A stretch of 61,496 nt of DNA from UHGV virus genome UHGV-0350099. One strand, given 5' to 3'. The notes below the pieces were generated by a model, which made no database searches, had not been told where the DNA came from, and saw nothing but the letters and a program-made list of their open reading frames with translations. This document shows, one piece after another, positions 6,369 through 38,708 of this stretch (position 1 is its first letter; each line of letters begins with the position of its first letter). This DNA is from a virus. The position numbers were made by a program, and so were the translations under genes.

Positions 6369-6400
6369 TGTCGAAGTTCCCCTCAAATGAGGGGGACACA

Positions 6401-6922: not shown

Positions 6923-6929
6923 GAGTAAA

Positions 6930-7199
6930 TTACTCCATGCTTTTCAGACGATTGGCAGCTCGTTTCAGCTTGTCGTTCGGTGCCGGAGGATTGCTTATAG
7001 CATCCATAACCAGATTCCAGGACTCTTCACTTAGAACCAGTCTACGGTGTTGCTCTATCACCTTCACGGCACGTTCGGATGCACTGCTAACCATGAACTG
7101 GGTAATGCTCTGGTTAGACATTGCGGCAGCTTCCTCGATGATGCTTTTATCGTCATCGGTTAATCTCAAATCGATGCGCTGCTTTTTCAGTGCGGACAT
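6930..7199 (-). CDS. RHH/DUF1778-type antitoxin (TacA-like)
   Basis: 89 aa; RIDLRLTDDDKSIIEEAAAMSNQSITQFM pattern typical of DUF1778 antitoxins; 7-nt gap to GNAT gene. Confidence 0.7.
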   Translation of the reverse strand: MSALKKQRIDLRLTDDDKSIIEEAAAMSNQSITQFMVSSASERAVKVIEQHRRLVLSEESWNLVMDAISNPPAPNDKLKRAANRLKSME

Positions 7200-7209
7200 G
7201 TGTACCCCC

Positions 7210-7290
7210 TGATGGCCGGTGATGTAGGAAGGCCATCATTGCTCTCTATTTAAACTGAGTTTTCGACTCAAAGGTTATTTAACTGGGCTA
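7210..7290. promoter_or_regulatory. Inverted repeats upstream of the antitoxin gene (candidate autoregulatory operator)
   Basis: GATGGCC-N13-GGCCATC at 7210-7236 and perfect palindrome TGGGCTATAGCCCA near 7275-7290. Confidence 0.3.
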
Positions 7291-7467
7291 TAGCCCATTG
7301 CGTATGTGTCATCAAATTGTGTACGGCAATTTACCGTACTCGTAATATAGAGATGATTGTCACTTTTTTCAACAGACAAATGAAAACAGTTACTAGCAAT
7401 AGGCAATAACAACCTACTAAATAACCTTTACACCGCAGCCGTAGGCATTTAGGCTATATCACATATA

Positions 7468-7484
7468 AGAAAACAAGTTGTTTC
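7468..7484. promoter_or_regulatory. AAACAAGTTGTTT palindrome upstream of parA
   Basis: AGAAAACAAGTTGTTTC about 35 nt before parA start. Confidence 0.5.
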
Positions 7485-7518
7485 AGACGATAATTATATA
7501 CGCAAAGGGAACTCTCCA

Positions 7519-8187
7519 ATGACCAAGATCTTTGTGGTTGGCGGCACAAAGGGCGGGCCTGGCAAATCCACTGTTGCCCAGCAAATTGCCGTTTGCCTGA
7601 AAGTCAAAAAGAAGAAGAAGGTTTATATCACTGATATAGATATTCAGCGCACGACAACGAGCTGGTGTGAAGACCGTCGACAGAACGAAGACCTTGAGCT
7701 GATTCCTTTTGCATACGTTCAGGATGACATCATTAAGCACCTAAAATCGCTTCAGGGTAGAGCTGAGTATGTAGTGGTAGATGCTGGTGGCTTCGACTCC
7801 GAAATTCAGCGACAAGCGATGCTGATGGCTGACGTTATCATTATCCCGCTGCGTCCTAAGCGTCGTGATTTGAAATCTTTACGTGACATCGATCCTATTA
7901 TCGACAATGTTCGCAATGTAAACGATAAAGTGAAGGTCCGCGCGGTCATGAACCAGTGCCCGGCTTTGCCATCACAAGTGTCTCGCATTCTGGCGGCTAA
8001 AGAGATTGTTGAGACGTTTGGCATCGAGTCTGCGCCAGTCAATCTATATAACCGCAACGTCTATGATGATGCGGAAGAGTCTGGTCGTTCTATCTTTGAA
8101 ATGACCGGTAGCGAGCGCGACAAAAAGGCGGAAGCCGAGTTTGAAGAATTTGTAGATTATCTGTTGAGTCTGGAGGAAGAAGAATAA
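7519..8187 (+). CDS. parA: ParA/Soj-family partition ATPase (small, type Ib-like)
   Basis: Deviant Walker A GGTKGGPGKST at N-terminus; 222 aa without N-terminal HTH. Confidence 0.8.
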   Translation: MTKIFVVGGTKGGPGKSTVAQQIAVCLKVKKKKKVYITDIDIQRTTTSWCEDRRQNEDLELIPFAYVQDDIIKHLKSLQGRAEYVVVDAGGFDSEIQRQAMLMADVIIIPLRPKRRDLKSLRDIDPIIDNVRNVNDKVKVRAVMNQCPALPSQVSRILAAKEIVETFGIESAPVNLYNRNVYDDAEESGRSIFEMTGSERDKKAEAEFEEFVDYLLSLEEEE

Positions 8188-14249: not shown

Positions 14250-14732
14250 ATGGCGGTAGTTGTGAAAGCTGATTTGTCAAAAATCCCTTCTATTTCAGGA
14301 AATAACGGTTATTCACTTCGTTGTGAGGAAGTAAAGATAAACGGTGAGTCGGCATATTGCAGCTATTCCGTTTGCCAGCACACCATTCTTGCCTTCAAAG
14401 AAAACCGTCTTCCTCGAACTTCTTTCCAGTCGTGCGCAGCCGCTATTAAAGCAGGCAAATGCAAGGCGTTAAAAATGATGGTTGAAGAGATTCGTAAAGG
14501 AGAATCTCTGTATTTCGAAGATATGACCGCGCTCATTAAGGAGGTTGAAGAACGGAATAAACAAGCCAGAACTATAAAACGAAAACGTGACAGTGTAACG
14601 ATTAATAGCATGGTTAAGAAGAGCACCACATCACAAACAGCGATCACTGACGTGTATGCGGCGTTGCTTGAAGAAACAACAAAAGAAACACATGAGCAAA
14701 TCGATCAACATATGGAGGCAAAACAACAATGA
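14250..14732 (+). CDS. Hypothetical Cys-rich protein
   Basis: 160-aa ORF with several Cys in the N-terminal half; no recognised motif. Confidence 0.45.
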   Translation: MAVVVKADLSKIPSISGNNGYSLRCEEVKINGESAYCSYSVCQHTILAFKENRLPRTSFQSCAAAIKAGKCKALKMMVEEIRKGESLYFEDMTALIKEVEERNKQARTIKRKRDSVTINSMVKKSTTSQTAITDVYAALLEETTKETHEQIDQHMEAKQQ

Positions 14733-16051
14733 AAAAGTTGATCGCACTTAAGCATAAGCTGGACGAAATGAAAGCTATGGGAACCAATGCAAAAAAAGAG
14801 GCATTGGCCAACATGGATGACTTCGAGCAAAGCATGGTTTCATTGATGCTCAACCCTTTCATCCGTTTTGGGGTAAAGAAATACAAAGTGGCAGAGCCGC
14901 TTAGTGAGTCCATCCCAAGTGACGAAAAAGCCATTGATGTACTGAATAAGCTGGCCTCTCGCGAGCTAACGGGGAACGCAGCAATAGCTGCTGTTGAGTC
15001 TATCGTGGCGTCAATGTGCGCCGATGGGCAGGACGTGTTCCGTCGTTTCCTCTTAAAAGATCCGAAAGCTGGCGTTGGGATTAGCCTATGCAACAAGGTT
15101 TTTGAAAATCCCATTCCGAAATTTGAGGTGCAGCTGGCGTCACCGTATAAAGAAAAAGGCGACAAATACCCCTTCAAGCCAAATCCTAAAGCCAAATGGC
15201 CGATGATTGGCAGCCTTAAGCTCGATGGTTTGCGAGTAATTTGTGAGGTTATTGTTGACGAGGAAGAGGTGAACTTCCTTTCTCGTACTGGTAATCCAAT
15301 CACGTCTCTCGATCACCTAAAGCCAGCCATGCTCGAATTAGGCAAACTTTCAGGCCACAAACACATCTTCTTCGATGGTGAAGGAACAGCCGGTTCATTT
15401 AACCAGTCCGTATCTGCATTGCGCAAAAAGAACGTGCAGGCAATTGGCGCTATTTATCATGTTTTCGACTTCTTCCTACCGGAATGGCGGGCACAGGCTA
15501 AATCCAAAGAGTATGCAAAGACAGGTATGAAGCTGAAAGAGCGCCTGGCTATTCTCGTGGCGTTGTTCAAAAACGATCGCAGTGAAGACTACGCGCAAGA
15601 CATTCACCTACATCCGTTCTACATCATCCATAGCCACGAAGACTTCATCGAACGCTTCATGAAACGCCTGGACGATAACGAAGAAGGGGAGATGGGCAAA
15701 GATCCGAACTCTGTTTACGAGTTTAAACGTACCCGCAGCTGGTGGAAGTTAAAAGACGAAGATTCAGAAGATGGTGAAATTATCGACTTTGAGCCGGGCG
15801 ACCCGGACTCTGGTTTTGCCAACACACTTGGAAAAATTGTTATTCGTCTTGAAAACGGCGTCATCGTTCGTGCGAGCGGCATTAAGCATAAATATCTGGA
15901 CGAGATCTGGAACAACAAAGAGAAGTACCGTGGTCGTATTGTCGAGGTTCATTGTCACGAGAAAACACCGGACGGCAGCTTACGCCACCCACGACTGAAA
16001 TGGCCGCGTTGCTTACGCGATACCGAAGATCGAATCGGAGATAAAGAATGA
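14729..16051 (+). CDS. ATP-dependent DNA ligase
   Basis: Adenylation motif KLDGLR (SLKLDGLRVI); size 440 aa; start overlaps previous stop. Confidence 0.8.
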   Translation: MKKLIALKHKLDEMKAMGTNAKKEALANMDDFEQSMVSLMLNPFIRFGVKKYKVAEPLSESIPSDEKAIDVLNKLASRELTGNAAIAAVESIVASMCADGQDVFRRFLLKDPKAGVGISLCNKVFENPIPKFEVQLASPYKEKGDKYPFKPNPKAKWPMIGSLKLDGLRVICEVIVDEEEVNFLSRTGNPITSLDHLKPAMLELGKLSGHKHIFFDGEGTAGSFNQSVSALRKKNVQAIGAIYHVFDFFLPEWRAQAKSKEYAKTGMKLKERLAILVALFKNDRSEDYAQDIHLHPFYIIHSHEDFIERFMKRLDDNEEGEMGKDPNSVYEFKRTRSWWKLKDEDSEDGEIIDFEPGDPDSGFANTLGKIVIRLENGVIVRASGIKHKYLDEIWNNKEKYRGRIVEVHCHEKTPDGSLRHPRLKWPRCLRDTEDRIGDKE

Positions 16052-19155: not shown

Positions 19156-20259
19156 ATGAAAAATAGCTTTGACAGAGCACGCGCTGCGGAGAACACCTCA
19201 AAAGAGGCGATTGAGTATCTCGAAAGAGCATCTCAAATGCAGGCCGTTATGATCTCGCAGGTTAGCAATGACATGAGATTCTCGGACGCATTCATGTTAT
19301 TCACTCGCTTATCTCTGCTGATAACCAGACGTCGGCCAGAGATCGCTGTTCATTGTATTTTGATACATGTTTTTCCGCACATTGCCGATGTAAAAGTAAG
19401 TGATATTAATAGGTTCATGGTGAACCAACTGGTCAACCCACTAATACTGGATGGCAAAATTGTTATGGGCCGCCGCGTTTTCTCTCTGATGAAGCAGTTC
19501 CTTAGCTGGTGCGCCTTCCAGGGGATGATAGACGTGTCACCGTTAAACGATATGTCACTTAACAAAGTTGCCGGTGGCGCAAAGCCCACGCCCCGCGAGC
19601 GGAAGCTGACTGACGCAGAGGTATGGGTGTTCTGGAATATATGGGACTACTTCAATGTGTGCGCTGGTACAAAATGGGCGGCCAGACTGTGTCTTGTATC
19701 AGCAAGACGACCTGACGAAGTACTGCGGGCTAAAAAAAGTGAGTTCAATCTTAAGCGTGGAGTTTGGAATCAAGGCAAGAGAAACAAGTCAGCACGTGAG
19801 CATTCGCTGCCTTTAAGCACATTAATGCGCACATGCATTGAAGAGTTGTTCGAATACGGTAAAGACAGCCAGTGGCTCGTGCCTTCGAATAAAAAAATCG
19901 GGAAAGACCTTCCTATGTCTAAAGTGGCAATAGCCCAGGCATTACGTCGTATTCTGGAACGACCAGAACTGATGGAGCTTGAGCCATTTACACCCCGAGA
20001 TTTGCGCCGTACTGCGCGTAGTTACTTCCCAGCATTAGGCATAAGCCAGGAGGTATCACGCAAAATCATGAACCACAGTCTTGAGGGGATAGATCGGGTC
20101 TACGACCGGCACGATTATATGGACGAGATGCGAGACGCCTTAGAAAGTTTCTCGACGTACATCGCATCAATCGTAGAGCAACCGGATTTAGACGAAATTG
20201 ACCACAAATTTAAGGGAGATCGTCTATCAACAGAGCTTATTCGTGTAAATTTTTCATAG
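19156..20259 (+). CDS. int: Tyrosine recombinase / phage integrase family protein
   Basis: 367 aa; C-terminal catalytic-domain pattern ARRPDEV...HSLPL...RDLRRTARS...HSLEGIDRVYDRHDY consistent with R-H-R-Y integrase fold. Confidence 0.7.
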   Translation: MKNSFDRARAAENTSKEAIEYLERASQMQAVMISQVSNDMRFSDAFMLFTRLSLLITRRRPEIAVHCILIHVFPHIADVKVSDINRFMVNQLVNPLILDGKIVMGRRVFSLMKQFLSWCAFQGMIDVSPLNDMSLNKVAGGAKPTPRERKLTDAEVWVFWNIWDYFNVCAGTKWAARLCLVSARRPDEVLRAKKSEFNLKRGVWNQGKRNKSAREHSLPLSTLMRTCIEELFEYGKDSQWLVPSNKKIGKDLPMSKVAIAQALRRILERPELMELEPFTPRDLRRTARSYFPALGISQEVSRKIMNHSLEGIDRVYDRHDYMDEMRDALESFSTYIASIVEQPDLDEIDHKFKGDRLSTELIRVNFS

Positions 20260-20640
20260 AGACTTTATGGCCTCAACAACCTTTTGTGATGCGCCTTTCT
20301 CTTTACCGAATCGCTCGTTATATGCAGCAAGAACCTGTTTTTCGTCCTCGTTAAGAGGAGCAGTGCCTTCTTTGTATAAAAATGCTGCGAGTTCGGGTTG
20401 GCGTTCTTCCAGCACCATCATCATAAGACGACTTGGCTCAATACCCAGCGCCAGCGCCAACGGACGAACCTTATCGATAGGCAAAGGAATTTTGCCACTT
20501 TTAATTAAAGAAAGGTTGTTGGCATTTTTGTAACCAATAAGTCTGGCTATTTGGGCCTGACTCATAGGTGAGGATTCAATCAACCCTGCGATAAAAGCAG
20601 CGTAGCGACTTTCTATAAATTCAATCTTGTTATCAGACAT
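20254..20640 (-). CDS. XRE-family HTH transcriptional regulator (candidate phage repressor)
   Basis: 128 aa; N-terminal HTH MSQAQIARLIGYKNANNLSLIKSGK; convergent with integrase; palindrome GGTAAGTGCTTACC in its upstream region. Confidence 0.6.
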   Translation of the reverse strand: MSDNKIEFIESRYAAFIAGLIESSPMSQAQIARLIGYKNANNLSLIKSGKIPLPIDKVRPLALALGIEPSRLMMMVLEERQPELAAFLYKEGTAPLNEDEKQVLAAYNERFGKEKGASQKVVEAIKSL

Positions 20641-20685: not shown

Positions 20686-20891
20686 GATATTACATCAAAG
20701 GTTAGGGTTGTAAAGCTATTATCATTTTTTTCGATAGGCACTTAAAAGACCGGTTAAAGGCCATTGCACGGAGAAAAATTAGCCCAAAATAGGTAAGAAA
20801 ATCAACTTGCATATGATATGAATGTATTCAGTATTGATACAAATTTTAGTAGTATTCCTTACCATAGTATAAGTTAGAATGGATTGATTGA

Positions 20892-21104
20892 ATGAAAACC
20901 ACTATTTCCAGCCTAATCGCTCTTGAGATCGGACACGTACAGAAATTAGCTGATGAGTGTGTAGCTGACATCCTCACCGATCTACCGAATGAGCAGATTC
21001 AGGTTGGTGTGAATGACACAACTGGATTTATATTCGAACTTAACAACAAACGCTTCACGCTTCTCAATACCGGCTCCGGGTCTTTAGCCGTCAGAATCTG
21101 TTAA
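20892..21104 (+). CDS. Hypothetical small protein divergent from repressor
   Basis: 70-aa ORF on opposite strand across a 250-bp AT-rich intergenic region. Confidence 0.35.
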   Translation: MKTTISSLIALEIGHVQKLADECVADILTDLPNEQIQVGVNDTTGFIFELNNKRFTLLNTGSGSLAVRIC

Positions 21105-21202
21105 CCCCTCTTCTCCCTGCGCGAATGGCTTAGTTCCCTGTTCGCGCAGTGCTACATTAAACACACTAGTAAATAATTTGTTTTCATAACAAAGGATTAG
21201 CC

Positions 21203-23311
21203 ATGTCTAAAAAACGTTCCATCAAAGAGGTTCAGGACTTCCGTGACAGTGTAAAACGAGTAGTCGCTCTCCTTTCAGGTAAAAACATCCCTGTTGCAGA
21301 ACGAGGGGACGACGCTTATGTACGCTATAACGATGATGGAGAGCCAATTCTCGTAAACATCCCATCAATCCCGGATAACGCAACACCGGCATTGATGAAT
21401 GCTGTGCGCGGATTTCTCGATCATGAGGTTGCTCACATTTTGTTTACCGATATTCGTGTGTCCAACAAAATGAGAGAAAAAGGACGCGTTCCTTCCTGGT
21501 CGCTATGGAATGCCTTAGAAGACGTGTTCATCGAGCGAAAAATGGGTCAGGTCTTTAACGGAACAAGACGTAATCTGATGGCAACTCAGCGCCTTATAAT
21601 CGAAAAAGTCTTTAAACCAAAGGCTTCAGAGGCTATTGCTTATTGTGGCAAAGATCAGCGCGCGCTTTTTCTAAACTTCTTTCTCTGTCCGGTTGTAAGA
21701 GCCTGGGATGGCCAAGCACCGTTCGTAGATTTCATGGATGAATATTGGCCTGTCATTGAGAAACCAATTTCATTATTAAAAGAACATGGTATCGATGTGG
21801 CCGTGCGTAACATGTCTTGCACCGAGGATTGTGTAAAGGTGGCTGCGACCATAGCTAAGATCCTCAAAGACACTGAAAGTGAAAGCAAAGGTAAGGAGTC
21901 AGCTCCGGGAAAAACTTCCGATCCTTCAGACGCTGACCAGACGGATGCCTCTGGAGAAAACAATGAAGACAACGAAGATCATGAGACACCCTCATCGTTA
22001 GATAATCACAAATCTATTAAATCAGAGTCACATAGTAAGCACAAACATGATAATAACGACAGTGATGATTCAGATAATCCTGAATCATCAGAAACAATAT
22101 TCGATGATACAGAAAATGATAAAGCGGTATCAGATTCTGATGCTTCTGATAACGCGGCGTCAGAATCATTAACCGCTGACCACGAAAAAAGAAAAACGAC
22201 AGAAGACGGCTCTTCAGACATTCCAACTCCGTCAAAAATGAGTCTGGAAGAGGCTTTAGAGGAGTTGGATAGCATGGAAGATGAAGTCGGAGGCATGACA
22301 GAAGATGCGCTATCCGAAACGATTAAAAGCGAGTTAACAGAAAGCTCGAAAAGCGAATACAGGCCATACAATCGCTCATACGACTTCATCGGCTCGATTG
22401 ATCAGGCAGAAGCCCATATCAAACGGCTTATTAAAACATTCTCCGATATTGATTTAGGTGGATATCCAATCAGCCGTTATCGCATCGTTCCTGAAGGCAA
22501 CCAACTCTTCGACAAATATATTGAAAAGCACCTTTCGTCAGGTGTTTCGTCGACGCTGGCAAAAGACCTGGAACGTGCAATAGCAAGCAGAAACAGAGTT
22601 CAGTTTATACCTGGCCAGCGTCGGGGGCGCATTCATGGTTCAAGTATCTACAGATTAACAATGAATGATGATCGCGTGTTTCGTAAAAAAGAAGAATCTA
22701 AAGCCGTTAACGCCTGTGTTCAACAAGTGATTGATTTATCGGGTTCAATGAGTGGCGAAACGATAAAACTAGCTCTTGCAAGTGCATATACCATCGCCGA
22801 TGCACTTGATCGAATAAATGTTCCCAACATTATCACCGGCTTCACTACATTTGGCAGTCATATGGCAGCAGGAGAACTTAAGGCTATCAAATATGAGTTC
22901 TCTCGCTTTGAATCTTTAATGCTACCTATCATCAAAAATTGGAATGAAAAAGCAAATTCTCGCGAAGTTCGCTCACGTATGGGGTGCGTAGGCTACACAT
23001 TCCCACTTCTTAATAACGTGGATGGTGAAAGCATAGCCAGCCTTGCATCGTTATTTTCCGGTCGCTTGGAGGACAGGAAGATCATGCTTGTTCTGAGCGA
23101 TGGCGCGCCGTGGGCTGTTGGGAGAGGTTTTGACGCCCATTTGCGTTCGGTTACGAAGCAAATTGAAACGCAGACTGACATTGATTTGATGGCAATTGGC
23201 ATCATGACTGATGCACCGGAGAGATTTTACGCAAATCATGCCCTGGTAACTAGTGTTGATAGTCTTGGTTCATCTGTAGTTACTGAACTATCTCGTATCA
23301 TTTTGAAGTAA
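21203..23311 (+). CDS. vWA-domain protein, CobT-like, with long acidic low-complexity linker
   Basis: 702 aa; MIDAS-like DLSGSMSG motif near C-terminal domain; Asp/Ser/Glu-rich linker around 21900-22300. Confidence 0.65.
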   Translation: MSKKRSIKEVQDFRDSVKRVVALLSGKNIPVAERGDDAYVRYNDDGEPILVNIPSIPDNATPALMNAVRGFLDHEVAHILFTDIRVSNKMREKGRVPSWSLWNALEDVFIERKMGQVFNGTRRNLMATQRLIIEKVFKPKASEAIAYCGKDQRALFLNFFLCPVVRAWDGQAPFVDFMDEYWPVIEKPISLLKEHGIDVAVRNMSCTEDCVKVAATIAKILKDTESESKGKESAPGKTSDPSDADQTDASGENNEDNEDHETPSSLDNHKSIKSESHSKHKHDNNDSDDSDNPESSETIFDDTENDKAVSDSDASDNAASESLTADHEKRKTTEDGSSDIPTPSKMSLEEALEELDSMEDEVGGMTEDALSETIKSELTESSKSEYRPYNRSYDFIGSIDQAEAHIKRLIKTFSDIDLGGYPISRYRIVPEGNQLFDKYIEKHLSSGVSSTLAKDLERAIASRNRVQFIPGQRRGRIHGSSIYRLTMNDDRVFRKKEESKAVNACVQQVIDLSGSMSGETIKLALASAYTIADALDRINVPNIITGFTTFGSHMAAGELKAIKYEFSRFESLMLPIIKNWNEKANSREVRSRMGCVGYTFPLLNNVDGESIASLASLFSGRLEDRKIMLVLSDGAPWAVGRGFDAHLRSVTKQIETQTDIDLMAIGIMTDAPERFYANHALVTSVDSLGSSVVTELSRIILK

Positions 23312-23327
23312 TTAAAACAGCCTTAAT

Positions 23328-23349
23328 GATAAGTAACTACTTACCATAG
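23328..23349. promoter_or_regulatory. Palindromic intergenic motif GATAAGTAACTACTTACCATAG
   Basis: Member of dispersed TAAGTA/TACTTA motif family. Confidence 0.45.
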
Positions 23350-23406
23350 TTAATGGTATATTTATATAAGAACTTGAACGCTCATTAGAGAACAAAGGAA
23401 AAGCGC

Positions 23407-24642
23407 ATGACTACTACTGCACTGCAAAATGATAAAAATCCTTCTGATTACCTTGTTTGCAAGTGGTGCGGCAAATCATTTCACTATTTTAAGTCCCATG
23501 TAGCCAATGGTAATTGCGAGGGCATTCCTGAGTCAGTAAAAGATGCCGATCCTGACACCGTACTGAAAATGTACACAACGCAGTTTCCAGATGAACCAAC
23601 GCTATCGAAAAAGGCACTTGATGCAATTCAAGCTAAACGTGCCGAGCAAAAAAGCGAAATGGCGAAATCTTCTGGCTTGACCAGTAGCCCAGGCTACACA
23701 GGCACAGTTGAGTACAAGACAGATCTGGTCGCAGCTCACGAACTGCTAAACGTAACGGTGGAAGAACTCGGAACAAAACGTGGGACGCCGCTCATGGTTA
23801 GCGTCAACGTCAATACGCCGTATCCAGAGTTCGTTCCAGAAGTGAAGAAGGGCTACGTATATGGCGACTTCGAACTGATCAAAGATATTTTCATGATGCT
23901 TGAACTTGGCATACCTGGCTATTTGTGGGGTCATGCAGGAACAGGCAAATCGTCATTGCCTACACAGCTATGTGCTTTGCTCAATCGTCCGTTGATCCGT
24001 GCCCAACATACAGCATCAATGGAAGAGGCACATGTTACGGGGCAAATTCTGGCGCGTGATGGCTCTACGTATTTCGAGCCTGGCTTGCTTGCGCTCGCAA
24101 TGAAGCATGGCTGGGTTTACCTCGCGGATGAATACGACTTTGCGTTTCCACAAATTCTTGGCGTGTATCAGCCAGTGCTGGAAGGTGAGGCGTTGGTCAT
24201 CAAAGAGGCAACTCCAGAATGGCGTCGCATTACTCCGCATGAACGGTTTGCTTTCATTGGCACTGGCAACACAAACGGTTCTGGTGATGAAACCGGCTTG
24301 TACCAGGGTACAAACATCCAGAACGCCGCGAACTTTTCACGTTTTGGCATCGTTTCGAATGTGAAATACATGAGCAAAGAGGCAGAGATCAACATGTTGA
24401 TAAATGCCGGCATCGTGGATGAGTACGCTGAAAAGATGGTTAAGTTTGCCGGTATCGTTCGCGATGGATATGAAGAACACCTTATCAGCCAGCCAATTGG
24501 GCCTCGTGAGCTTTTGTTGTCGGCCAAGATTGGAATGATGCGAGGCGACTTTGTGGCAGGTATTGAGCGTTCTTTCATTAACAAACTCCCTTCAGCTTCT
24601 GCGCAAGCGGCTCGTGAAGTTGTTCAAAAAATATTTGGTTAA
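23407..24642 (+). CDS. AAA+ ATPase, MoxR/CobS-like
   Basis: Walker A GHAGTGKSSL, Walker B-like VYLADEYDF; adjacent to vWA partner. Confidence 0.7.
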   Translation: MTTTALQNDKNPSDYLVCKWCGKSFHYFKSHVANGNCEGIPESVKDADPDTVLKMYTTQFPDEPTLSKKALDAIQAKRAEQKSEMAKSSGLTSSPGYTGTVEYKTDLVAAHELLNVTVEELGTKRGTPLMVSVNVNTPYPEFVPEVKKGYVYGDFELIKDIFMMLELGIPGYLWGHAGTGKSSLPTQLCALLNRPLIRAQHTASMEEAHVTGQILARDGSTYFEPGLLALAMKHGWVYLADEYDFAFPQILGVYQPVLEGEALVIKEATPEWRRITPHERFAFIGTGNTNGSGDETGLYQGTNIQNAANFSRFGIVSNVKYMSKEAEINMLINAGIVDEYAEKMVKFAGIVRDGYEEHLISQPIGPRELLLSAKIGMMRGDFVAGIERSFINKLPSASAQAAREVVQKIFG

Positions 24643-24822
24643 TCGTGCGTAAAGGATGTTTCGGCTCTCTTATCGCTGCTTCTGAAACTGGCAAGGCTTG
24701 TCTGGGGTGTCCAGACAAGCCCGATTGTCACCAATCAGCAAAAGAAGTTGCGATTTCGATGTATGGGAAGTTCGTAGGCTTCCCCAATGACAAAATCAAA
24801 AAAACCAGAAAGGTAAAAACAC

Positions 24823-27800
24823 ATGAAGGCACTGATGGTTCGAACTGACTTCTCACTTGGGGAGTCGGCTCTAAAAGCAGAAAACGCGGTGAAGATTGCC
24901 AGAGAAGCTGGCTACACCGCTGTAATTTCAGCAGATAGCATGAATATTGCGAGCGTTATTCCACTACAACGTGCCGCTGGTGACGACATGGCGGTTATTT
25001 GTGGTGTGAAACTAAACATTGTTGATGATCCCACATACGAGCACCGGGCTAAACTTGCTAAAGAATCTATGAGATGTATGGAATCATTAGAGCGGGGACG
25101 TAACTACTCGTTTACCGCTCTAATTAAAAATGAGCAAGGATATCGCGACATCTGCGAACTAATGACGGTGGCCAACACACGAGAACAGTTCTACTTTGTA
25201 CCGCGTCTCTCGCTCGAACAGTTGGTTTCTACATATGCCAAAGGCAACATCATCCTGCTTACTTCCGACATCGGTAGCGTGTTCCAACGCAACGATTTTG
25301 CAAAAATCATAAGCACACTGATTACAGCGGGTGGAAAAGACAACTTCTATAGTGTGGTTTATCCGCACCCTACCCCATTCTACGACCAGATTAACGTCCG
25401 AGCGATGAAAGTAGCCAGCGCACTGAAAATAGAGCCAGTAGCGTTCTATCCCGCTTATTACGAATCGATCGACGATGCAGACATTAAAGACATTGCGCAC
25501 ATGGTTACGAACAACATAAAAATCGACCAGCCGCATCGTCTGCGTATCCCCCACCAGCGAGATAACGCCATCAATGGTCGTCGCCATCTCCTTGAGGCGC
25601 TTAAAGCCTTCTCCGTTCGCATGGATGTGCCGGTAACAGCTGCAATGGCCTCAACAACGCAGGACTCCATTATCGATGCCTGCACATGGCGCTGGCATGA
25701 ATTGCCACCAGCACTGCCCAAGATGGCAGACGACGAACCTGCAACGCTGATGAAACTGGCTGTTGCAGGGCTGCGTAAACGTCTTACCACAAAAGAGTTT
25801 GGATACACACCACCTGCTTCTGAGAACAGGGTTTATGTTGAGCGGCTAAAGTACGAAATGAACACGCTGACTCGCCTGGGATTTTGTGGTTACTTCCTGA
25901 TGGTACGCGATCTGATGAATCACAGCCGTGAAACTGGCATTCCTGTCGGGCCTGGTCGTGGTTCCTCTGCCGGTTCTCTGGTGGCGTGGTGCATAGGCAT
26001 AACCAACGTCGACCCAATCCGTCACGGTCTTCTGTTTGAGCGTTTCATCAACCCTGAGCGTCTCGACTTGCCGGATGCGGACTTGGACTTCAGCCAGGCA
26101 CGTCGCCATGAGGTGATCGAGTATCTGAATGAACGCTACGGCGAAGATTACGTTGCAGGCATTCCGAACTTCACCTATCTGGGCGCGGCATCTGCACTAC
26201 GTGACACCGCTCGTATTTATGGTGTGGAGTCCGCAGATATGGCGGTATCAAAAGAACTGAAGAACGTCGAGGATGATAGCCTTCCATTGGAAGAGCTGCG
26301 CGAACAACTGGCAAGTCTCGACAAATACGCAACAAAATATCCTGATGCATTCAATGCAGCCTGCAAGTTACAAAGCCTTATGCGTGGCTTTGGTAGACAT
26401 GCGGCAGGGATGATTGTAGCAGGTGTTCCTCTGACAGAACGTACACCGGTTGAGCGCCGTGGTGACGCGCGTTGTATCGCATTTGACAAGCGTTACTGCG
26501 AGGCTATGGGCCTAATTAAGCTGGACGTGCTTGGCCTGGCAACTCTCGATTTGCTCGATAGTGCAAAACGCTACATAAAAGAGAACACAGGTGAAGATAT
26601 CAATCTTGATGCCATTTCTCTTGAAGATCGCAAGGTGCTGGATGGTTTTGCTGCAGGGTATACACAGGGCGTATTCCAGCTGGAGTCCGGCCCCATGCGC
26701 AAGCTGCTTAAAGATCTAGGCGGTGGCATTGAGCCAATGAGCTTTAAAACCGTTGTCGCCACGACCGCACTCTTCCGACCTGGCCCGATCCAATCCGGCA
26801 TGTTGGACGACTATGTTTCTGTCGCCAAAGGCTTTATGACGCCGGAATCATTACACCCCGTTCTTGATGAACTTACCGCGGAAACAAATGGCGTGATTCT
26901 CTATCAGGAACAGACGATGAACGCGACTCGATTGCTTGCCGGCTTCACAATGGCTGAAGCTGACGGTGTGCGTTCCGCAATCGGTAAGAAGAACATGGAA
27001 AAAATGAAGAGCATGGGCGAGAAGTTCATCGTTCAGGCTCAAGCTGGCTGGATAGACGTTGAGCTGGAAGATGGCACTACACAGCGCATTCACCGTGCGG
27101 AACATTTTAAATGCGAAGACGGAACTCTGAAAACTGTCGAAGAGGCACTTGAGCACGGCGCAAAACTACCTATAAACGCAGTACGCGTTACAGCGTCACA
27201 TCCAGGGCTATCAGAGATGAAAGCGAAGGAGATCTGGACCGCATTCGAAAAAAATGGTGCCTACCAGTTCAATAAATCACACTCCGTTGCTTATTCTTTA
27301 ATCAGTTATCAGTCTATGTGGCTAAAGACGCACTACCCTGCTGAGTTCTTCGCAGCTGCGCTCACCATTCTGGGCGAGGATAAGCATCAGGGGCTGGTGA
27401 AGGATGCGCTGACCTATGGCATTCGCGTATTGCCACCAGACGTTAATGTGTCATCTAACCGAATTGAGATCCGCACACTCGAAGACGGCAGTCAGGCACT
27501 GTATGCGCCATTCTCTGCTGTGAAAGGCTGTTCTGAAAATGGTTGTCAGGCAATTATGCGTGCGCGTGAGAAAGTTGGTGGCAAATTCGAGTCAGTGGCA
27601 CAATTCGATGAAGCGGTCGAGAAGCGTGCATGTAACAGTCGTGTACGCGAGTCGCTTCATAAAGTAGGGGCTTTTGCGTCAATTGAGCCAGGCAGTCTGC
27701 CAGCAACTGATCCTGAACGACTGCGCGACCAGGCTGAGCTGATGGGCAATCTCATCATTGACGCTGTTAAAGCATCACGTCCGTTCGAAATGAATCCTAA

Positions 27801-28341
27801 GCGTTCTGCCGAAATCAACGTACTCATGACACGTATGGCGGCTGAAATGGGCTTGGGTGAGGAGTTGATACGCCCGACTATTGGTATTAAACCCAAAATC
27901 ATGATCATTCTGGACAATGCGAACGGCAATGACGCTCGTACCGGCTACTTCATGGAGAACGGATACGACGACTTTAAGGCAAAACTACTGACAGTTGGAG
28001 ATCTGCGCATGGGCGATCTTTATGTCACGGGTGTTTGTAAGAAGGTTAAGGACAAAGAGAAAGACTATACCAAAGACGAGATAGGCCAGTTCACAGACTT
28101 TATGCGGGAAGAAATTAATCTTGTACGACCAACCTACATTTTGACGTGTGGTAGTCGTTCAACCGCACTATTTAACAATAAGAGTAAACCATCAGATCTG
28201 ATTGGTCGTAAGGAGTACTTCCCAGAGCTTGATGCAACCGTCTTCTACGGATTTAACCCGAATATCCTGTACTTCCGACCGGAAGAAGGAGAGCGACTGG
28301 AGGCCATTCTGGCTGATATCGCGGAGACAATAAATAAGTAA
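24823..28341 (+). CDS. dnaE: DNA polymerase III alpha-subunit-like (DnaE-family, C-family polymerase)
   Basis: 1172 aa; N-terminal PHP-like region; core GFCGYFLMVRDLM...GPGRGSSAGSLVAWCIGITNVDP...PDADLDF. Confidence 0.9.
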   Translation: MKALMVRTDFSLGESALKAENAVKIAREAGYTAVISADSMNIASVIPLQRAAGDDMAVICGVKLNIVDDPTYEHRAKLAKESMRCMESLERGRNYSFTALIKNEQGYRDICELMTVANTREQFYFVPRLSLEQLVSTYAKGNIILLTSDIGSVFQRNDFAKIISTLITAGGKDNFYSVVYPHPTPFYDQINVRAMKVASALKIEPVAFYPAYYESIDDADIKDIAHMVTNNIKIDQPHRLRIPHQRDNAINGRRHLLEALKAFSVRMDVPVTAAMASTTQDSIIDACTWRWHELPPALPKMADDEPATLMKLAVAGLRKRLTTKEFGYTPPASENRVYVERLKYEMNTLTRLGFCGYFLMVRDLMNHSRETGIPVGPGRGSSAGSLVAWCIGITNVDPIRHGLLFERFINPERLDLPDADLDFSQARRHEVIEYLNERYGEDYVAGIPNFTYLGAASALRDTARIYGVESADMAVSKELKNVEDDSLPLEELREQLASLDKYATKYPDAFNAACKLQSLMRGFGRHAAGMIVAGVPLTERTPVERRGDARCIAFDKRYCEAMGLIKLDVLGLATLDLLDSAKRYIKENTGEDINLDAISLEDRKVLDGFAAGYTQGVFQLESGPMRKLLKDLGGGIEPMSFKTVVATTALFRPGPIQSGMLDDYVSVAKGFMTPESLHPVLDELTAETNGVILYQEQTMNATRLLAGFTMAEADGVRSAIGKKNMEKMKSMGEKFIVQAQAGWIDVELEDGTTQRIHRAEHFKCEDGTLKTVEEALEHGAKLPINAVRVTASHPGLSEMKAKEIWTAFEKNGAYQFNKSHSVAYSLISYQSMWLKTHYPAEFFAAALTILGEDKHQGLVKDALTYGIRVLPPDVNVSSNRIEIRTLEDGSQALYAPFSAVKGCSENGCQAIMRAREKVGGKFESVAQFDEAVEKRACNSRVRESLHKVGAFASIEPGSLPATDPERLRDQAELMGNLIIDAVKASRPFEMNPKRSAEINVLMTRMAAEMGLGEELIRPTIGIKPKIMIILDNANGNDARTGYFMENGYDDFKAKLLTVGDLRMGDLYVTGVCKKVKDKEKDYTKDEIGQFTDFMREEINLVRPTYILTCGSRSTALFNNKSKPSDLIGRKEYFPELDATVFYGFNPNILYFRPEEGERLEAILADIAETINK

Positions 28342-28347
28342 TAAAGA

Positions 28348-28372
28348 AAACCCGCCTGTTGGCGGGTTTATA
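28348..28372. terminator. Bidirectional rho-independent terminator between dnaE (+) and cspA (-)
   Basis: AAAACCCGCC-TGTT-GGCGGGTTTAT, A-tract and T-tract on either side. Confidence 0.65.
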
Positions 28373-28644
28373 AAGAATTATGGCGCTTGTTGAGGAAGTC
28401 ACTCCTCTTACGCACTTTGTTTTGCCATGCCGGCAGTTAGCTTCTGCCTTTGACTATTCATGCGGCAACCCCGCATTTCGCCACAATGGGCAATTCACTT
28501 TTATGGAATAAACTGGCCGTTGTGTCGATTTAATTAGCATGGCCTTACCATGCTAATTTATTCAACTTGTACAATCCTACAAATCTATCCACTCAGGCTT
28601 ACACCGTCTTCGTTATTGTAGAAATGAGGATCATCAGCGTTGAA

Positions 28645-28860
28645 TCAGCTTAGAGCAACGACATTTGCTGCTGCTGGGCCTTTAGCACCATTCTCGATAG
28701 AGAATTCGACCTGCTGGCCTTCTTCCAAAGTGCGGAAATTATTACTCTGAATTGCCGAAAAATGTACAAAAACATCTTTACTGCCATCAGCAGGAGAAAT
28801 AAAGCCAAAGCCTTTATCAGAGTTAAACCATTTTACTAAACCAGTCATTTTATTAGACAT
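28645..28860 (-). CDS. cspA: Cold-shock protein, CspA family
   Basis: [38 protein letters not shown]... with RNP motifs KGFGFI and VFVHF; start trimmed to MSNK. Confidence 0.9.
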
Positions 28861-29075
28861 AGATATTACCTTCTTAATTTTGTGAGCCACATAGTGCGGC
28901 GAGAATTTGATCTGTATAGATTGGGACTTACTTAGGCACTTAAGGAGGAGACTCACGAAGAAGGGAAATCAGAAGATAACACTGAACTGAGACTGCTTTA
29001 CTAAAACTGCTTACATAAGGTCTGTCTTGCAAACCAACGATGCTATTAACGCATACCCCTTCTTTTCATGCAACC
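28861..29075 (-). promoter_or_regulatory. cspA-type promoter and long 5' UTR
   Basis: On minus strand reads TTGCAT -35-like, TTAAT -10-like and a cold-box-like TGCAAGACAGACC; about 180-nt leader as in enterobacterial cspA (recalled from memory). Confidence 0.5.
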
Positions 29076-29189
29076 TTTATTTTTCAAAGATAACTAATTT
29101 TTGTCACCATTGGTTTAGTAAACGTTAACGAACCAGACGATGCCAGACACCTTTACAGAGAACAGATGCCCGCCAATTGGCGGGCATCA

Positions 29190-29753
29190 TTATGCGCATT
29201 TCGCAATATCTTTGCGGCGTTTAATCAGTTTCTCCGCAATTTGCTCTATTTCGTTGAAATCTTTCGAGACGCTGTTTCGAAGCGCCAGATTCCATTTACT
29301 CAAAGTTCGGGCATTTTGGACAATTTGATCGCCCTCTTTAAGTCGTCCGTTATTCATGAGCCATTCAGCCACATCAGCCCAATCCCAGAGAGGAGACTGG
29401 CCTTTTATGCGTTGTACAGGGCAAGGGAAGTCGCCGCTTCCGCGCTTACCGTCTTTGAGCAACGCCACTGCCTGGCGAGACAGGTCTGTCAGTTCCGCGA
29501 TATCGCTTAAGCCCACAAGAGCCGAGTCGACGGATTCAACAATTGCACCGATACCGGCTGATTCAATATTGTCGACCGCAGATGCGATAGCTGCATCAAG
29601 TGATTGTGCTTCGCGGTCAAATTCTACATAGACGGAGTTTCCATATGCGCAAATTAGCGCATCGTCACAGCCGTTTTGGTACAGCGCGTCTTCCAGTCCT
29701 TCCGTCTCATACGATACGCCTGAGAGCGTCAGAGTGAAGTTATAAAGCGCCAT
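29190..29753 (-). CDS. Putative DNA-binding protein with HicB-like N-terminal fold (antitoxin-like)
   Basis: Start taken at MALYNFTLTL; N-terminal YxFTLTL...YVEF pattern and a C-terminal HTH-like segment; assignment is weak. Confidence 0.3.
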   Translation of the reverse strand: MALYNFTLTLSGVSYETEGLEDALYQNGCDDALICAYGNSVYVEFDREAQSLDAAIASAVDNIESAGIGAIVESVDSALVGLSDIAELTDLSRQAVALLKDGKRGSGDFPCPVQRIKGQSPLWDWADVAEWLMNNGRLKEGDQIVQNARTLSKWNLALRNSVSKDFNEIEQIAEKLIKRRKDIAKCA

Positions 29754-29813
29754 AGTTTTCCTTTGAAGATAGTTGGACAGTTTCTGCAAAAGGCGGCTAA
29801 TGCCGCCTTGAAA

Positions 29814-38224: not shown

Positions 38225-38708
38225 CCAACCACTGCGGTGAGTAGTCTGCTCACCGCATTCGTATCCAGCTCATTATCCACTGTAGTCAGTAACAAAACCT
38301 TCCTACATATCTGCTAACCACTGTAGCGAGTAGACAGCCTTTCATTCGCATCAAACAACCACTATGGTGAGTATTGGAGTGAGATGTCCAGCGGGTATCC
38401 ACTATGGTGAGTAAGCCTTTGCTGTTTTCAGTGGATATCCACTCGCCACAGTGGATACGCTCAAAGATGAGGGCGACAACAACCACTATAGACAGTAAAT
38501 TTTCCAAGATACCCAGTGACCACTAACCTCGCAGCCCTTGTTTCATCAGTGTTAGTGATCACTAACATTTAATTCAGTATTTGCATTCTACTGCCTACAG
38601 TGGTTATCAACAGATAACGATACTCACTATAGTGGATAGCGAATTACAGATATAAGTAAGGCTCACTACAGTGGATAGTGAGCCTTACTACTAACTACAG
38701 TGGTTGGG
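38225..38708. repeat. Iteron-like repeat array downstream of repA (incA-like copy-control candidate)
   Basis: About 11 copies of CCACTRTRG(N)GAGTA / CTACAGTGGWTA at roughly 40-bp spacing, both orientations; core CACTATAGTG is palindromic. Confidence 0.6.

Follow-up and report, generated by a model that had tools for sequence, protein, structure and literature searches.

The closest described counterparts of the gene pair analysed here are the CobS and CobT subunits of cobaltochelatase (EC 6.6.1.2; PDB 9ujv and 9uka; preprint 10.64898/2026.07.21.739949), which are encoded by two adjacent genes. An AAA_5 ATPase is there combined with an adaptor comprising an N-terminal domain described as M48C-like in the solved structure, an acidic disordered linker some 90 aa long and a vWA domain whose MIDAS is complete. 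The shaft of cellular CobT (Q373-R413) inserts into the CobS ring, and the effector, CobN, is a separate protein presented by the adaptor. NorQ-NorD, CbbQ-CbbO, RavA-ViaA and BchI-BchD offer analogies to this arrangement, with a hexameric AAA+ motor acting on a client through a MIDAS-vWA adaptor, and BchI/ChlI has been assigned to a different AAA+ clade (preprint 10.64898/2026.07.21.739949). In phages, a MoxR-vWA pair with an N-terminal metallopeptidase on the vWA protein was independently described by Iyer, Anantharaman, Krishnan, Burroughs and Aravind (2021, Viruses 13:63; PMC7824862), so that neither the pair nor the MoxR-vWA-peptidase architecture is new to the literature.

Phage genomics and viromics routinely count cobS and cobT as vitamin-B12 auxiliary metabolic genes, and wrong enzymatic steps are sometimes ascribed to them because Salmonella and Pseudomonas share gene names for different enzymes. 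No experiment was found in the literature on members of the pair, and papers on other phages call cobS uncertain or only propose a function, in agreement with a previous sequence-only reading of this locus, which considered its role in phages not established.

A CobST-like gene pair between the lysogeny switch and dnaE

The window, that is, the whole stretch of 61,496 nucleotides under analysis, is an SSU5-like phage-plasmid with 97% identity to Escherichia phage Cyrano. Two ORFs spanning positions 21203-24642 had been proposed to lie between the regulatory switch and dnaE. Both coding regions were recovered exactly at 21203-23311 and 23407-24642 on the + strand, separated by 95 nt and flanked by the integrase/repressor region (19156-20640) on one side and dnaE (24823-28341) on the other. 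The block contains the following features:

20892..21104, + strand: 70-aa ORF (phrog_2627), the first on the right-hand side of the divergent repressor gene and directly 5' of the pair
21203..23311, + strand: CobT-like adaptor protein, 702 aa (Pfam CobT and CobT_C; phrog_1576, E 6e-301)
23407..24642, + strand: CobS-like MoxR-type AAA+ ATPase, 411 aa (AAA_5; phrog_249, E 5e-106; PDB CobS)
24645..24848, + strand: 67-aa Cys-rich ORF (phrog_6337), starting 3 nt past the cobS-like stop and overlapping the dnaE start
24823..28341, + strand: DnaE-type DNA polymerase III alpha, a downstream neighbour conserved in the siphophage lineage
28348..28369, no strand assigned: GC-rich perfect hairpin immediately after dnaE

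The hairpin probably marks the end of the transcription unit. The annotation of Cyrano includes the 70-aa ORF in the same place, and an ORF of 60-62 aa is found there in remoter relatives. The 67-aa ORF is conserved in SSU5 as SSU5_051; its identification with the sigma70_r2-like gene that distant relatives carry at this position was rejected, as the two are unrelated. Cyrano and PhiR41_1 are cultured close relatives of this element. The pair was identified in 494 phage records and, within E. coli, in 219 of 5426 complete genomes (4%), exclusively on phage-plasmids and in no instance (0) on the chromosome.

The ATPase is a CobS relative with a different N-terminal extension

The 411-aa protein matches AAA_5 at aa 173-293 (Pfam, E 2e-15). 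Its best structure match is the solved cobaltochelatase CobS (9ujv_A, aa 142-411, E 1.8e-25); midasin, CbbQ and NorQ rank next, an outcome that bears out its earlier assignment to the MoxR/CobS-type AAA+ ATPases. NorQ and CbbQ are thus detectable sequence relatives of the phage ATPase, and many of its homologues carry a CbbQ_C Pfam match. Three motifs were located:

23458..23499, + strand: C18-x2-C21-x4-H26-x4-H31 in the N-terminal extension, a candidate zinc-binding knuckle
23929..23952, + strand: Walker A GHAGTGKS, aa 175, conserved across 112 aligned sequences
24115..24132, + strand: Walker B VYLADE, aa 237, conserved across 112 aligned sequences

Conservation in the same 112 sequences is at least 95% for C18 and at least 80% for C21, G22, H26 and H31; the knuckle may possibly bind zinc. 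It stands in place of the CobS_N domain (PF12556) of cellular CobS, which the Pfam scan did not detect in the phage protein. Further differences from cellular CobS concern the pore residues S102, I104, D110, I112 and R147, which contact the shaft according to the preprint and are not conserved in a manual alignment, and the score against the CobS equivalog TIGR01650, which reaches 84.9 bits for a cut-off of 558.55.

The adaptor retains the shaft, the MIDAS and the acidic linker of CobT

In the 702-aa protein, Pfam matches to CobT (aa 9-292, E 3e-27) and to CobT_C/vWA (aa 492-701, E 6e-83) were obtained, and the C-terminal domain matches residues 347-616 of PDB CobT 9uka_G (E 7e-18). The full-length AlphaFold2 model has a pLDDT of 81.7. 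The linker and the C-terminal part comprise the following:

21902..22213, + strand: acidic Ser-rich disordered linker, aa 234-337 (composition; pLDDT below 50 in AlphaFold2)
22223..23308, + strand: C-terminal ordered part, aa 341-702, with lead-in helices, hairpin and vWA in the AlphaFold2 model, aligning to CobT_C of 9uka_G
22589..22711, + strand: shaft-equivalent segment, aa 463-503, aligned to the Q373-R413 shaft of cellular CobT
22733..22747, + strand: MIDAS motif DLSGS (DxSxS), aa 511-515, with D511, S513 and S515, completed by N605 and D633

The shaft-equivalent segment, for which strands are predicted at 465-472 and 493-499, forms a hairpin before the vWA domain as in cellular CobT, and by analogy it would insert into the ring of the phage ATPase. 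The protein had been described as a MIDAS-containing vWA protein, and the DLSGS motif with N605 and D633, which are invariant or nearly so in 50 relatives, confirms that description: all five positions match D422/S424/S426/N518/D546 of cellular CobT. As with the ATPase, the score against the corresponding equivalog (TIGR01651) is far under threshold, at 69.1 bits for a cut-off of 759, and covers aa 297-697 only. The phage gene order, T then S, also differs from the S-then-T order of the two cellular loci examined.

The sequence-only reading had singled out an unusually long Asp/Ser/Glu-rich insert at about 21900-22300. The segment itself was closely placed (nt 21902-22213), and Ser (27), Asp (24) and Glu (22) account for 73 of the 151 residues between aa 225 and 375. 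Its length is not unusual, however: the HExxH and MIDAS motifs lie 437 apart here, the median for the family being 398, and the distance is longer in 37 of 127 representatives. Among 76 SSU5-like relatives the distance ranges from 421 to 527, 437 being the second shortest class, so that most close relatives have a longer linker. Its length and sequence are highly variable among them, a tandem DNA repeat beneath it was looked for and not found, and acidic residues outnumber basic ones (DE > KR) in the linkers of 126 of 127 family representatives. A disordered tether of this kind is normal in, and characteristic of, the CobT family as a whole.

The N-terminal domain carries a conserved zincin motif

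A feature missed by the sequence-only reading is a zincin motif in the N-terminal domain of the vWA protein, which true CobT lacks. The elements of this domain are:

21203..21898, + strand: N-terminal domain, aa 1-232, with a helix, a three-stranded sheet and a helical bundle, predicted to adopt an M48/zincin-like fold
21422..21436, + strand: zincin HExxH motif HEVAH, aa 74-78, with H74, E75 and H78 invariant in 36- and 50-sequence alignments
21509..21535, + strand: NALEDVFIE, aa 103-111, a helix with a candidate third zinc ligand

HEVAH falls within predicted helix 62-81, and E106 and E111 lie on predicted helix 96-117. Neither alignment shows any variation at E106, D107 or E111, and N103 is invariant in the first and nearly so in the second. 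The best structural matches of the domain are M48/gluzincins (Ste24/ZMPSTE24, HtpX, BepA and the BlaR1 sensor domain), which share the helix-borne HExxH followed by a Glu-bearing helix, and it is by analogy with them that the NALEDVFIE helix is a candidate source of the third ligand. In contrast to these peptidases, the phage protein is soluble, with no membrane segments, is fused to a vWA domain and is coupled to an AAA+ motor. The adaptors of NorQ-NorD, CbbQ-CbbO, RavA-ViaA and BchI-BchD, for their part, have no zincin domain, and the known clients of these systems (NorB, Rubisco and ChlH) are absent here.

The HExxH motif is kept in 127 of 127 full-length representatives (clusters at 50% identity), a proportion biased towards motif retention because the query carried the motif and the matches were ranked by their similarity to it. 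The motif also occurs in the cyanophage P-SSM4 'peptidase', ICP2-like JSF27, roseophage CRP-810, Rhizobium phage RHEph10 and a Salmonella genomic-island protein. In cellular CobT, by contrast, it was found in 0 of 61 sequences, all 61 reading D[S/A]MALR where the phage segment reads DHEVAH. Pseudomonas phage nickie and Stenotrophomonas phage BUCTxx99 have lost the motif, reading DSEISK and DREVST respectively, but nonetheless retain the pair and its place before dnaE, and proteolysis can hence not be indispensable to the core role of the module in every lineage. The phage and cellular N-domains align weakly in a profile-profile comparison (E about 0.02-0.04), and their putative homology rests on the shared PF06213 match and on topology. 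The G-x-x-D segment with which cellular CobT contacts CobS is conserved, G70 and D73 being invariant in the segment equivalent to R76/D80 of the crystal structure.

The pair lies among replication or recombination genes in phages of three polymerase types

In DnaE siphophages of Enterobacteria, Pseudomonas, Rhizobium and Stenotrophomonas the pair is located next to dnaE, a context shared by metagenomic relatives with 45% CobS identity; synteny within this group may simply reflect common descent. In an ICP2-like podophage the pair is found upstream of helicase and PolA genes, and in the T4-like cyanophage P-SSM4 the order is gp47, gp46, peptidase, pcyA, cobS, gp45, gp44, gp62. The two genes remain adjacent in most loci examined, pcyA intervening in P-SSM4, and in phages of all three polymerase types they lie among replication or recombination genes.

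The P-SSM4 'peptidase' contains HEVGH, NVLEDARIE, an acidic linker and DWSGS, and is followed by cobS, reproducing the architecture of the window pair. The pair of Iyer et al. (PMC7824862) presents the same architecture and motifs. We regard the window pair as a member of this Iyer/cyanophage group, from which it differs in its low identity (about 30% or less) and in its setting, a temperate siphovirus phage-plasmid with DnaE as opposed to a lytic T4-like myovirus. In cyanomyophages the pair is a near-universal single-copy gene, whatever the depth or niche (PMC9983427), a pattern more in keeping with a core phage function than with a niche metabolic gene.

Proposed function and alternative explanations

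On the basis of sequence homology, the pair can be classed as a phage-type CobS-CobT motor-adaptor module of the MoxR AAA+/vWA-MIDAS class. The explanation that we favour, and to which we give about an even chance, is that this CobST-like motor and adaptor contain a built-in metallopeptidase effector and act early on a protein. No CobN was found among the 25 window ORFs scanned and the adaptor N-domain keeps its HExxH...E site, which leads to a proposal of remodelling followed by cleavage. From the observed homology, motifs, predicted fold, conservation and synteny we infer the geometry of the complex, zinc binding, proteolysis, timing and target as follows. The ATPase would form a hexameric ring, by homology with the solved cobaltochelatase, and grip the hairpin shaft ahead of the vWA domain, its small AAA+ subdomain providing the docking site for the adaptor N-domain. 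The two halves of the adaptor would be tethered by the acidic linker, so that once the MIDAS face had captured a protein substrate and ATP hydrolysis had remodelled it, the tethered metallopeptidase could cleave it. Since the pair heads a rightward early/replication block beside the lysogeny switch, the machine probably comes into play when lytic DNA replication begins, with a protein of the host or the phage as its target.

The usual view in the literature, proposed for archaeal and bacterial tailed viruses (PMC8651126) and repeated elsewhere, would make this a genuine auxiliary metabolic pair, in which a viral CobST, by docking on host CobN or a mosaic CobN/ChlID chelatase, raises cobalt insertion and with it the B12 supply available to phage replication. 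The clear homology to CobS and CobT, shaft and MIDAS included, speaks for it, yet we consider it the least probable of the explanations weighed here. The scores lie 6-11 times under the equivalog cut-offs, the intact HExxH of the phage adaptor is absent from all 61 cellular CobT sequences examined, and near-universality in cyanomyophages regardless of niche argues in the same direction. Pfam scans of 25 window ORFs, including the two longest (1188 aa, a tail fibre; 1172 aa, DnaE), returned no CobN match. On the host side, engineering de novo B12 synthesis in E. coli required heterologous cobN, cobS and cobT, Salmonella uses the anaerobic route (PMC6249242), and carriage in E. coli is confined to phage-plasmids. 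The ribonucleotide reductase of the phage is class I (NrdA and NrdB, from Pfam scans of window ORFs) and does not need B12, which also counts against this role. With a host without known CobN and an adaptor that keeps its zinc site, the pair is probably a protein-remodelling or processing machine and not a vitamin B12 enzyme. The B12 reading is thus implausible at this locus, as had been anticipated when a role in replisome or virion assembly, rather than cobalamin synthesis, was suggested. The replication link in that suggestion is upheld by its wide conservation, but virion assembly finds no support in the position of the pair, which belongs to the early/replication region in every lineage examined. 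A chaperone or protease folding and processing structural proteins has been proposed for T4-like jumbo phages, with Acidianus two-tailed virus, where a role in tail formation has been shown for MoxR-vWA proteins, cited as a precedent (PMC7824862). The published virion-maturation proposal does not fit the gene position here, directly after the repressor, nor that in P-SSM4, between gp46/47 and gp45/44/62, and all genomes examined have the pair far from head and tail genes. Gene position is indirect evidence of timing, and we deem such a function very improbable.

A MoxR-vWA chaperone without proteolysis is a stronger contender, although still rather unlikely. It would remodel or metallate a replication protein, for instance by loading metal into the PHP domain of DnaE or by assembling the replisome, the N-domain serving only as a scaffold on which the ATPase docks, as it does in cellular CobT. 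Pairs of the MoxR-vWA type typically act in maturation or metal insertion (NorQD, CbbQO and CoxDE; preprint 10.64898/2026.07.21.739949), the pair adjoins dnaE over a wide range of siphophages, and it stays there in the phages that have lost HExxH. The strict conservation of H74, E75, H78, E106 and E111 in widely diverged relatives is nevertheless hard to fit to a scaffold alone, and the conserved site extends to T4-like cyanophages and podophages without DnaE. Association of the pair with family A and family B polymerases as well excludes a DnaE-specific role as its general function. The favoured motor-adaptor with its own peptidase would, given a host target, include as a special case an improbable host-takeover or anti-defence protease, whose MIDAS adaptor captures a host defence, nucleoid or replication protein that is then destroyed early. 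The place beside the lysogeny switch, the intact peptidase motif and the rapidly evolving linker are compatible with such a role, but the domains are strongly conserved, unlike typical fast-evolving anti-defence genes, and no literature support was found. PADLOC models gave no match for the ATPase or the 67-aa ORF, and a weak one (DrmE, E 7e-4) for the vWA protein.

As a tentative and on balance doubtful generalization, phage 'CobST' might be an ancient and widespread ATP-driven, MIDAS-targeted metalloprotease of tailed viruses that licenses lytic DNA replication by cleaving a specific host or phage protein and has no metabolic role. Cellular CobT would then be an inactivated relative, its dead peptidase domain reused for docking, and the locus accordingly bears on the evolution of the chelatase adaptor. 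Given the 494 phage records and the near-universal cyanomyophage distribution, the protease reading, if true, would re-assign much-cited viral 'auxiliary metabolic genes'. The E. coli element and its cultured relatives provide tractable genetics for the role of what is a near-universal core pair in cyanophages. In the nearly identical phage Cyrano, the public labels 'dimethylbenzimidazole phosphoribosyltransferase' and 'cobalamin synthetase' were rejected, as they derive from a gene-name collision and not from homology.

Organization of the gene pair and its locus

The sequence-only reading had described a MIDAS-containing vWA protein adjoining an AAA+ ATPase at 21203-24642, placed between a regulatory switch and dnaE. 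This description proved correct: the coordinates are exact, the Pfam domains and the MIDAS, Walker A and Walker B motifs are all present, and the pair is preceded by integrase and repressor genes and followed by the gene encoding DnaE.

Features of the locus
19156-20259: integrase, upstream of the pair
20254-20640, minus strand: HTH repressor, divergent, upstream of the pair
20892-21104: 70-aa ORF (orf70), upstream of the pair
21203-23311, plus strand: CobT-like protein, 702 aa; Pfam CobT at aa 9-292 (E 3e-27) and CobT_C (vWA) at aa 492-701 (E 6e-83); MIDAS motif DLSGS at aa 511; PHROGs phrog_1576 (unknown function)
23407-24642, plus strand: CobS-like ATPase, 411 aa; Pfam AAA_5 at aa 173-293; Walker A GHAGTGKS at aa 175; Walker B VYLADE at aa 237; PHROGs phrog_249 ("porphyrin biosynthesis")
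23458-23499: C-x2-C-x4-H-x4-H element, aa 18-31 of the CobS-like ATPase; C18 at least 95% and the other positions at least 80% conserved across 112 aligned sequences
24645-24848, plus strand: Cys-rich 67-aa ORF (phrog_6337), with C5, C19, C22 and C28
Downstream of the pair: DnaE, 1172 aa
28348-28369: perfect GC-rich hairpin, directly after dnaE
28645-28956, minus strand: cold-shock-protein-like ORF, called by reading its sequence
Within 28645-29789, minus strand: 199-aa ORF, no Pfam match

The window is an SSU5-like phage-plasmid, in which the stretch encompassing bases 20800-28400 is 97% identical to Escherichia phage Cyrano, about 95% identical to two other E. coli phage-plasmids and 81% identical to Salmonella phage SSU5. 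The 67-aa Cys-rich ORF, also kept in SSU5, starts 3 nt past the stop codon of the cobS-like gene and overlaps the start of dnaE by 26 nt. Its slot is occupied in more distant relatives by a sigma70_r2-like gene; the possibility that the ORF is a remnant of this gene was rejected, the two being unrelated. Since a promoter and terminator scan returned no more sites than shuffled sequence, with none convincing inside the block, operon structure can only be inferred, and the segment from orf70 to dnaE may constitute one transcription unit.

Phage homologues of CobT and CobS were first remarked upon for ICP2 in 2011 (PMC3037004), and a two-gene cluster was later described in tailed viruses of eight bacterial or archaeal host orders (Liu et al. 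2021). A MoxR-vWA pair in which the vWA protein carries an N-terminal metallopeptidase has been reported in T4-like jumbo phages and proposed to act in virion maturation (Iyer et al. 2021, PMC7824862), while cobS is near-universal and single-copy in cyanomyophages (PMC9983427). No experimental test of the pair's function was found in the literature. The Cyrano record (OV696614, 6404-9843) names the two products "dimethylbenzimidazole phosphoribosyltransferase" and "cobalamin synthetase". Both names belong to Salmonella enzymes that happen to be called CobT and CobS and are unrelated to the proteins analyzed here; the same confusion is present in the text of PMC11288001. In E. coli, the NCBI pipeline labels the two products "cobaltochelatase CobT-related protein" and "AAA family ATPase". 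Of 5426 complete E. coli genomes, 219 carry the genes, in every case on a plasmid and never on the chromosome.

Relationship to the aerobic cobaltochelatase

Comparison with solved structures identified CobS (9ujv_A, E 1.8e-25, aa 142-411) as the nearest solved structure to the ATPase, supporting its initial assignment as MoxR/CobS-like, and CobT (9uka_G, E 7e-18 over the C-terminal domain) as the nearest to the CobT-like protein. In the chelatase, CobS forms a hexameric ring, which is entered by a shaft (Q373-R413) preceding the vWA domain of CobT (CobT_C). CobT_N, which is M48C-peptidase-like, is docked on the CobS small subdomain, and the catalytic subunit CobN is bound between the two CobT domains near the MIDAS (preprint 10.64898/2026.07.21.739949). 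The cellular shaft aligns with aa 463-503 of the phage protein, with predicted strands at aa 465-472 and 493-499, and the phage MIDAS residues D511, S513, S515, N605 and D633 correspond to D422, S424, S426, N518 and D546 of cellular CobT. Across 50 relatives, these five positions show little or no variation. G70 and D73 are invariant and fall in the segment that matches the CobS-contacting R76/D80 of CobT. Such correspondence makes it very likely, by homology, that the phage pair and the chelatase share their motor-adaptor mechanics.

On several tested points, the pair fails membership of the chelatase family. The NCBI equivalog models yielded 69 bits for CobT and 85 bits for CobS, against cut-offs of 759 and 558, respectively. 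Whereas cellular CobS has a CobS_N domain, the phage ATPase lacks it and presents its own N-terminal extension, with the partly conserved C-x2-C-x4-H-x4-H element; this may be a zinc knuckle, and the one cellular CobS sequence read has no CxxC at this position. Pfam scans of 25 window ORFs, including the two longest listed (a tail fibre of 1188 aa and DnaE), returned no match to CobN. De novo B12 synthesis in E. coli needed heterologous cobN, cobS and cobT, and Salmonella uses the anaerobic route (PMC6249242). Furthermore, the phage encodes a class I ribonucleotide reductase (NrdA- and NrdB-type subunits), and the usual rationale of supplying B12 to a class II enzyme is hence inapplicable.

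Conservation of a putative zinc-site motif in the N-terminal domain

The N-terminal domain of the CobT-like protein (aa 1-232) contains the motif HEVAH at aa 74-78, followed by NALEDVFIE at aa 103-111. An exhaustive HMMER search against 1.84 billion cluster representatives (E <=0.001) identified 1123 relatives. Of the best 150 of these, 127 are full-length proteins, and every one of them keeps both HExxH and DxSxS; the 49 of the 127 that were aligned show 28-62% identity over their full length. Residues H74, E75, H78, E106, D107 and E111 are invariant in alignments of 36 and 50 sequences. For domain-sized queries, word-indexed homologue searches gave mostly fragments, up to about 1.7 times the query length, and were poor for diversity; this was taken from the exhaustive search and from genome loci.

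Structural matches of the domain include BepA, BlaR1, an M48 peptidase, ArdC and Ste24p, together with minigluzincins and SprT/Wss1-type zincins, and structure-based matches also place it N-terminal to the vWA domain in proteins of sipho-, podo- and myoviruses, haloarchaeal tailed viruses and actinophages. Foldseek searches against the PDB gave nothing significant. Neither phmmer nor the 36-sequence profile of the domain retrieved the solved CobT_N, and their chance-level matches (HLA-DR beta and AcrIIA26) were discounted. The AcrIIA26 match (9zq6_B, E 0.006) covers 49 columns at aa 95-143, centred on the LNxVEDxFIE helix, and is probably due to chance; AcrIIA26 is described as blocking Cas9 DNA binding (PMC13089141).

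For the cellular comparison, 80 alphaproteobacterial cobT loci were fetched, yielding 61 full-length CobT sequences. None of the 61 contains HExxH, the aligned position reading RGxxD[S/A]MALR in 56 of them, and the MIDAS is kept in all. Pfam PF06213 is common to both N-terminal domains (cellular positions 4-275, E 6e-94; phage positions 3-271), and the residue correspondence agrees with that of a weak hhalign match (E 0.02-0.04), which was used for this purpose only. In two other alphaproteobacterial assemblies (L003, 3316-5380; L004, 3421-5329), cobT consists of two overlapping reading frames, with the break close to where the acidic linker begins; this could reflect assembly error, a pseudogene or frameshifting; the 61 intact genes replaced them.

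The motif is intact in a cyanophage P-SSM4 protein annotated as "peptidase" (HEVGH, NVLEDARIE, DWSGS), in the ICP2-like Vibrio phage JSF27 (HECYH), in roseophage CRP-810 (HEAGH), in Rhizobium phage RHEph10 and in a Salmonella genomic-island protein. The latter, encoded at 6001-7797 of a Salmonella Typhimurium island (AB571791), belongs to the same family (598 aa; HEAAH, NVLEDCRIE, DMSSS) and has a low-complexity, Gln/Asn/Gly-rich linker; on the chromosomal island its gene is close to ssb and bet, and the AAA-family gene is not adjoining but lies several genes upstream. HExxH has been lost in Pseudomonas phage nickie (8974-11058, DSEISK) and Stenotrophomonas phage BUCTxx99 (5992-7977, DREVST). 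In both, the MIDAS is retained, the ATPase gene is next door and the pair precedes dnaE. Judged by sequence, these two proteins are putative natural "peptidase-dead" variants that lend themselves to comparison. The predicted zinc-site motif is hence strongly, but not universally, conserved among viruses, and degenerate in every cellular chelatase adaptor examined.

The acidic linker

A full-length AlphaFold2 model of the CobT-like protein (50-sequence alignment, mean pLDDT 81.7) has three parts: a confident region at aa 1-232, a segment at aa 234-337 (nt 21902-22213) where pLDDT falls below 50, and an ordered region from about aa 341. The middle segment is rich in Ser, Asp and Glu, and the disordered, acidic insert noted previously is thus real; its description as unusually long did not hold. 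The distance from HExxH to the MIDAS is 437 residues, against a family median of 398, and is longer in 37 of the 127 full-length representatives. Across the 76 SSU5-like relatives taken from viral contigs it ranges from 421 to 527, with the window protein in the second-shortest class, and the acidic linker of the RHEph10 protein (836 aa) is far longer. A net-acidic linker is present in 126 of the 127 representatives and was also seen in the cellular CobT sequences fetched here; in cellular CobT, a disordered acidic linker of about 90 residues has been described (preprint 10.64898/2026.07.21.739949). Being near-universal and longer in many relatives, the linker is a normal, fast-evolving tether of the family. 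Conservation among close relatives is limited to a short acidic helix (MSLEEALEELDSMEDE...) at the C-terminal end of the linker. At the DNA level, a single short 9-nt array (2.6 copies, score 32) was detected, and no other tandem repeats were found in the linker region.

Genomic context in other phages

A first scan of viral contigs returned SSU5-like relatives only, and wider context was obtained from annotated phages and contig look-ups. Three metagenomic relatives, with 45% identical CobS-like proteins, share the order CobT-like, CobS-like, one or two small ORFs, DnaE, gp32-type SSB, 5'-3' exonuclease and RecA. A small ORF with a weak sigma70_r2 match is present in two of the three, and an integrase and HTH repressor lie just upstream of the pair in two, one of which is integrated beside uvrC. 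In nickie, RHEph10 and BUCTxx99 the order is DnaB, primase, (ligase), CobT-like, CobS-like, small ORFs and DnaE. The T4-like P-SSM4 presents gp55, gp47, an unnamed ORF, gp46, the "peptidase", pcyA, cobS, an unnamed ORF, gp45, a DNA-binding protein, gp44, dam and gp62. In the ICP2-like podophage the helicase and PolA genes follow a few genes downstream of the pair, and in CRP-810 the pair occurs in S-then-T order towards the left genome end, close to an integrase.

The pair hence lies beside early replication and recombination genes across three polymerase families, and never with head or tail genes in the genomes examined. Gene position, which is indirect evidence for timing, argues against both DnaE-specific roles and the part in virion assembly that the sequence-only reading had hinted at. 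A DnaE-specific role was rejected as a general explanation, since the pair also accompanies T4-type and PolA-type replication modules.

Proposed mechanism and alternative explanations

The homology, motifs, conservation and context observed here form the basis for a reading in which the pair operates as a CobST-like motor and adaptor, with a protease effector built into the adaptor. The ATPase ring would grip the shaft of the vWA domain, the MIDAS face would capture a protein client, ATP-driven motion would remodel it, and the zincin domain, on a flexible acidic tether of about 100 residues, would cut it. We infer assembly, zinc binding, catalysis, timing and the client, and consider the chances of this explanation to be evenly balanced.

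The main alternative is that the same machine works as a pure chaperone or metal-insertion factor, with the N-terminal domain serving only for docking. The loss of HExxH in two phage lineages supports a chaperone without proteolysis, and we regard this as possible, if doubtful. An anti-defence function, which would overlap with the motor-adaptor-protease explanation if the target were a host protein, appears improbable; PADLOC returned only a weak DrmE match for the vWA protein (E 7e-4), and nothing found here thus assigns the pair to a known defence system. Virion assembly is very improbable given the placement with early genes. Classical B12 synthesis is, for this element, the least probable, in view of the low equivalog scores, the missing CobS_N, the lack of a CobN match in the 25 ORFs and the class I reductase.

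The genes were already annotated in near-identical phages, and the peptidase-vWA-MoxR architecture had been described for other phages. The present analysis explicitly places the SSU5-type pair in that group, adds a residue-level contrast with genuine CobT (HExxH in 127/127 versus 0/61) and shows the pair accompanying replication genes in three polymerase lineages. Its function can be tested directly in the tractable E. coli and Salmonella elements.

Additional features of the element

An exact 11-mer, CTTACCATAGT, occurs on the plus strand upstream of orf70 (20858-20868) and in the gap between the cobT-like and cobS-like genes (23340-23350), where it could provide the -35 element of a TTACCA-18-TATAAG promoter. 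Two one-mismatch copies (38361-38371 and 38401-38411, minus strand) are located next to the Rep3-type initiator gene and resemble iterons. The four matches compare with 0.63 expected, and four were reached in 1 of 100 shuffles.

An intein containing a LAGLIDADG homing-endonuclease domain splits the RecA homologue (33144-35483, plus strand, 779 aa; Pfam Intein_splicing, LAGLIDADG_3 and RecA), whose counterparts in relatives have 335-339 aa. The cargo just past dnaE also differs between the window (28645-29789, minus strand) and Cyrano, which carries HicA/HicB in this slot (14379-15227). The slot therefore appears to be a variable accessory site.
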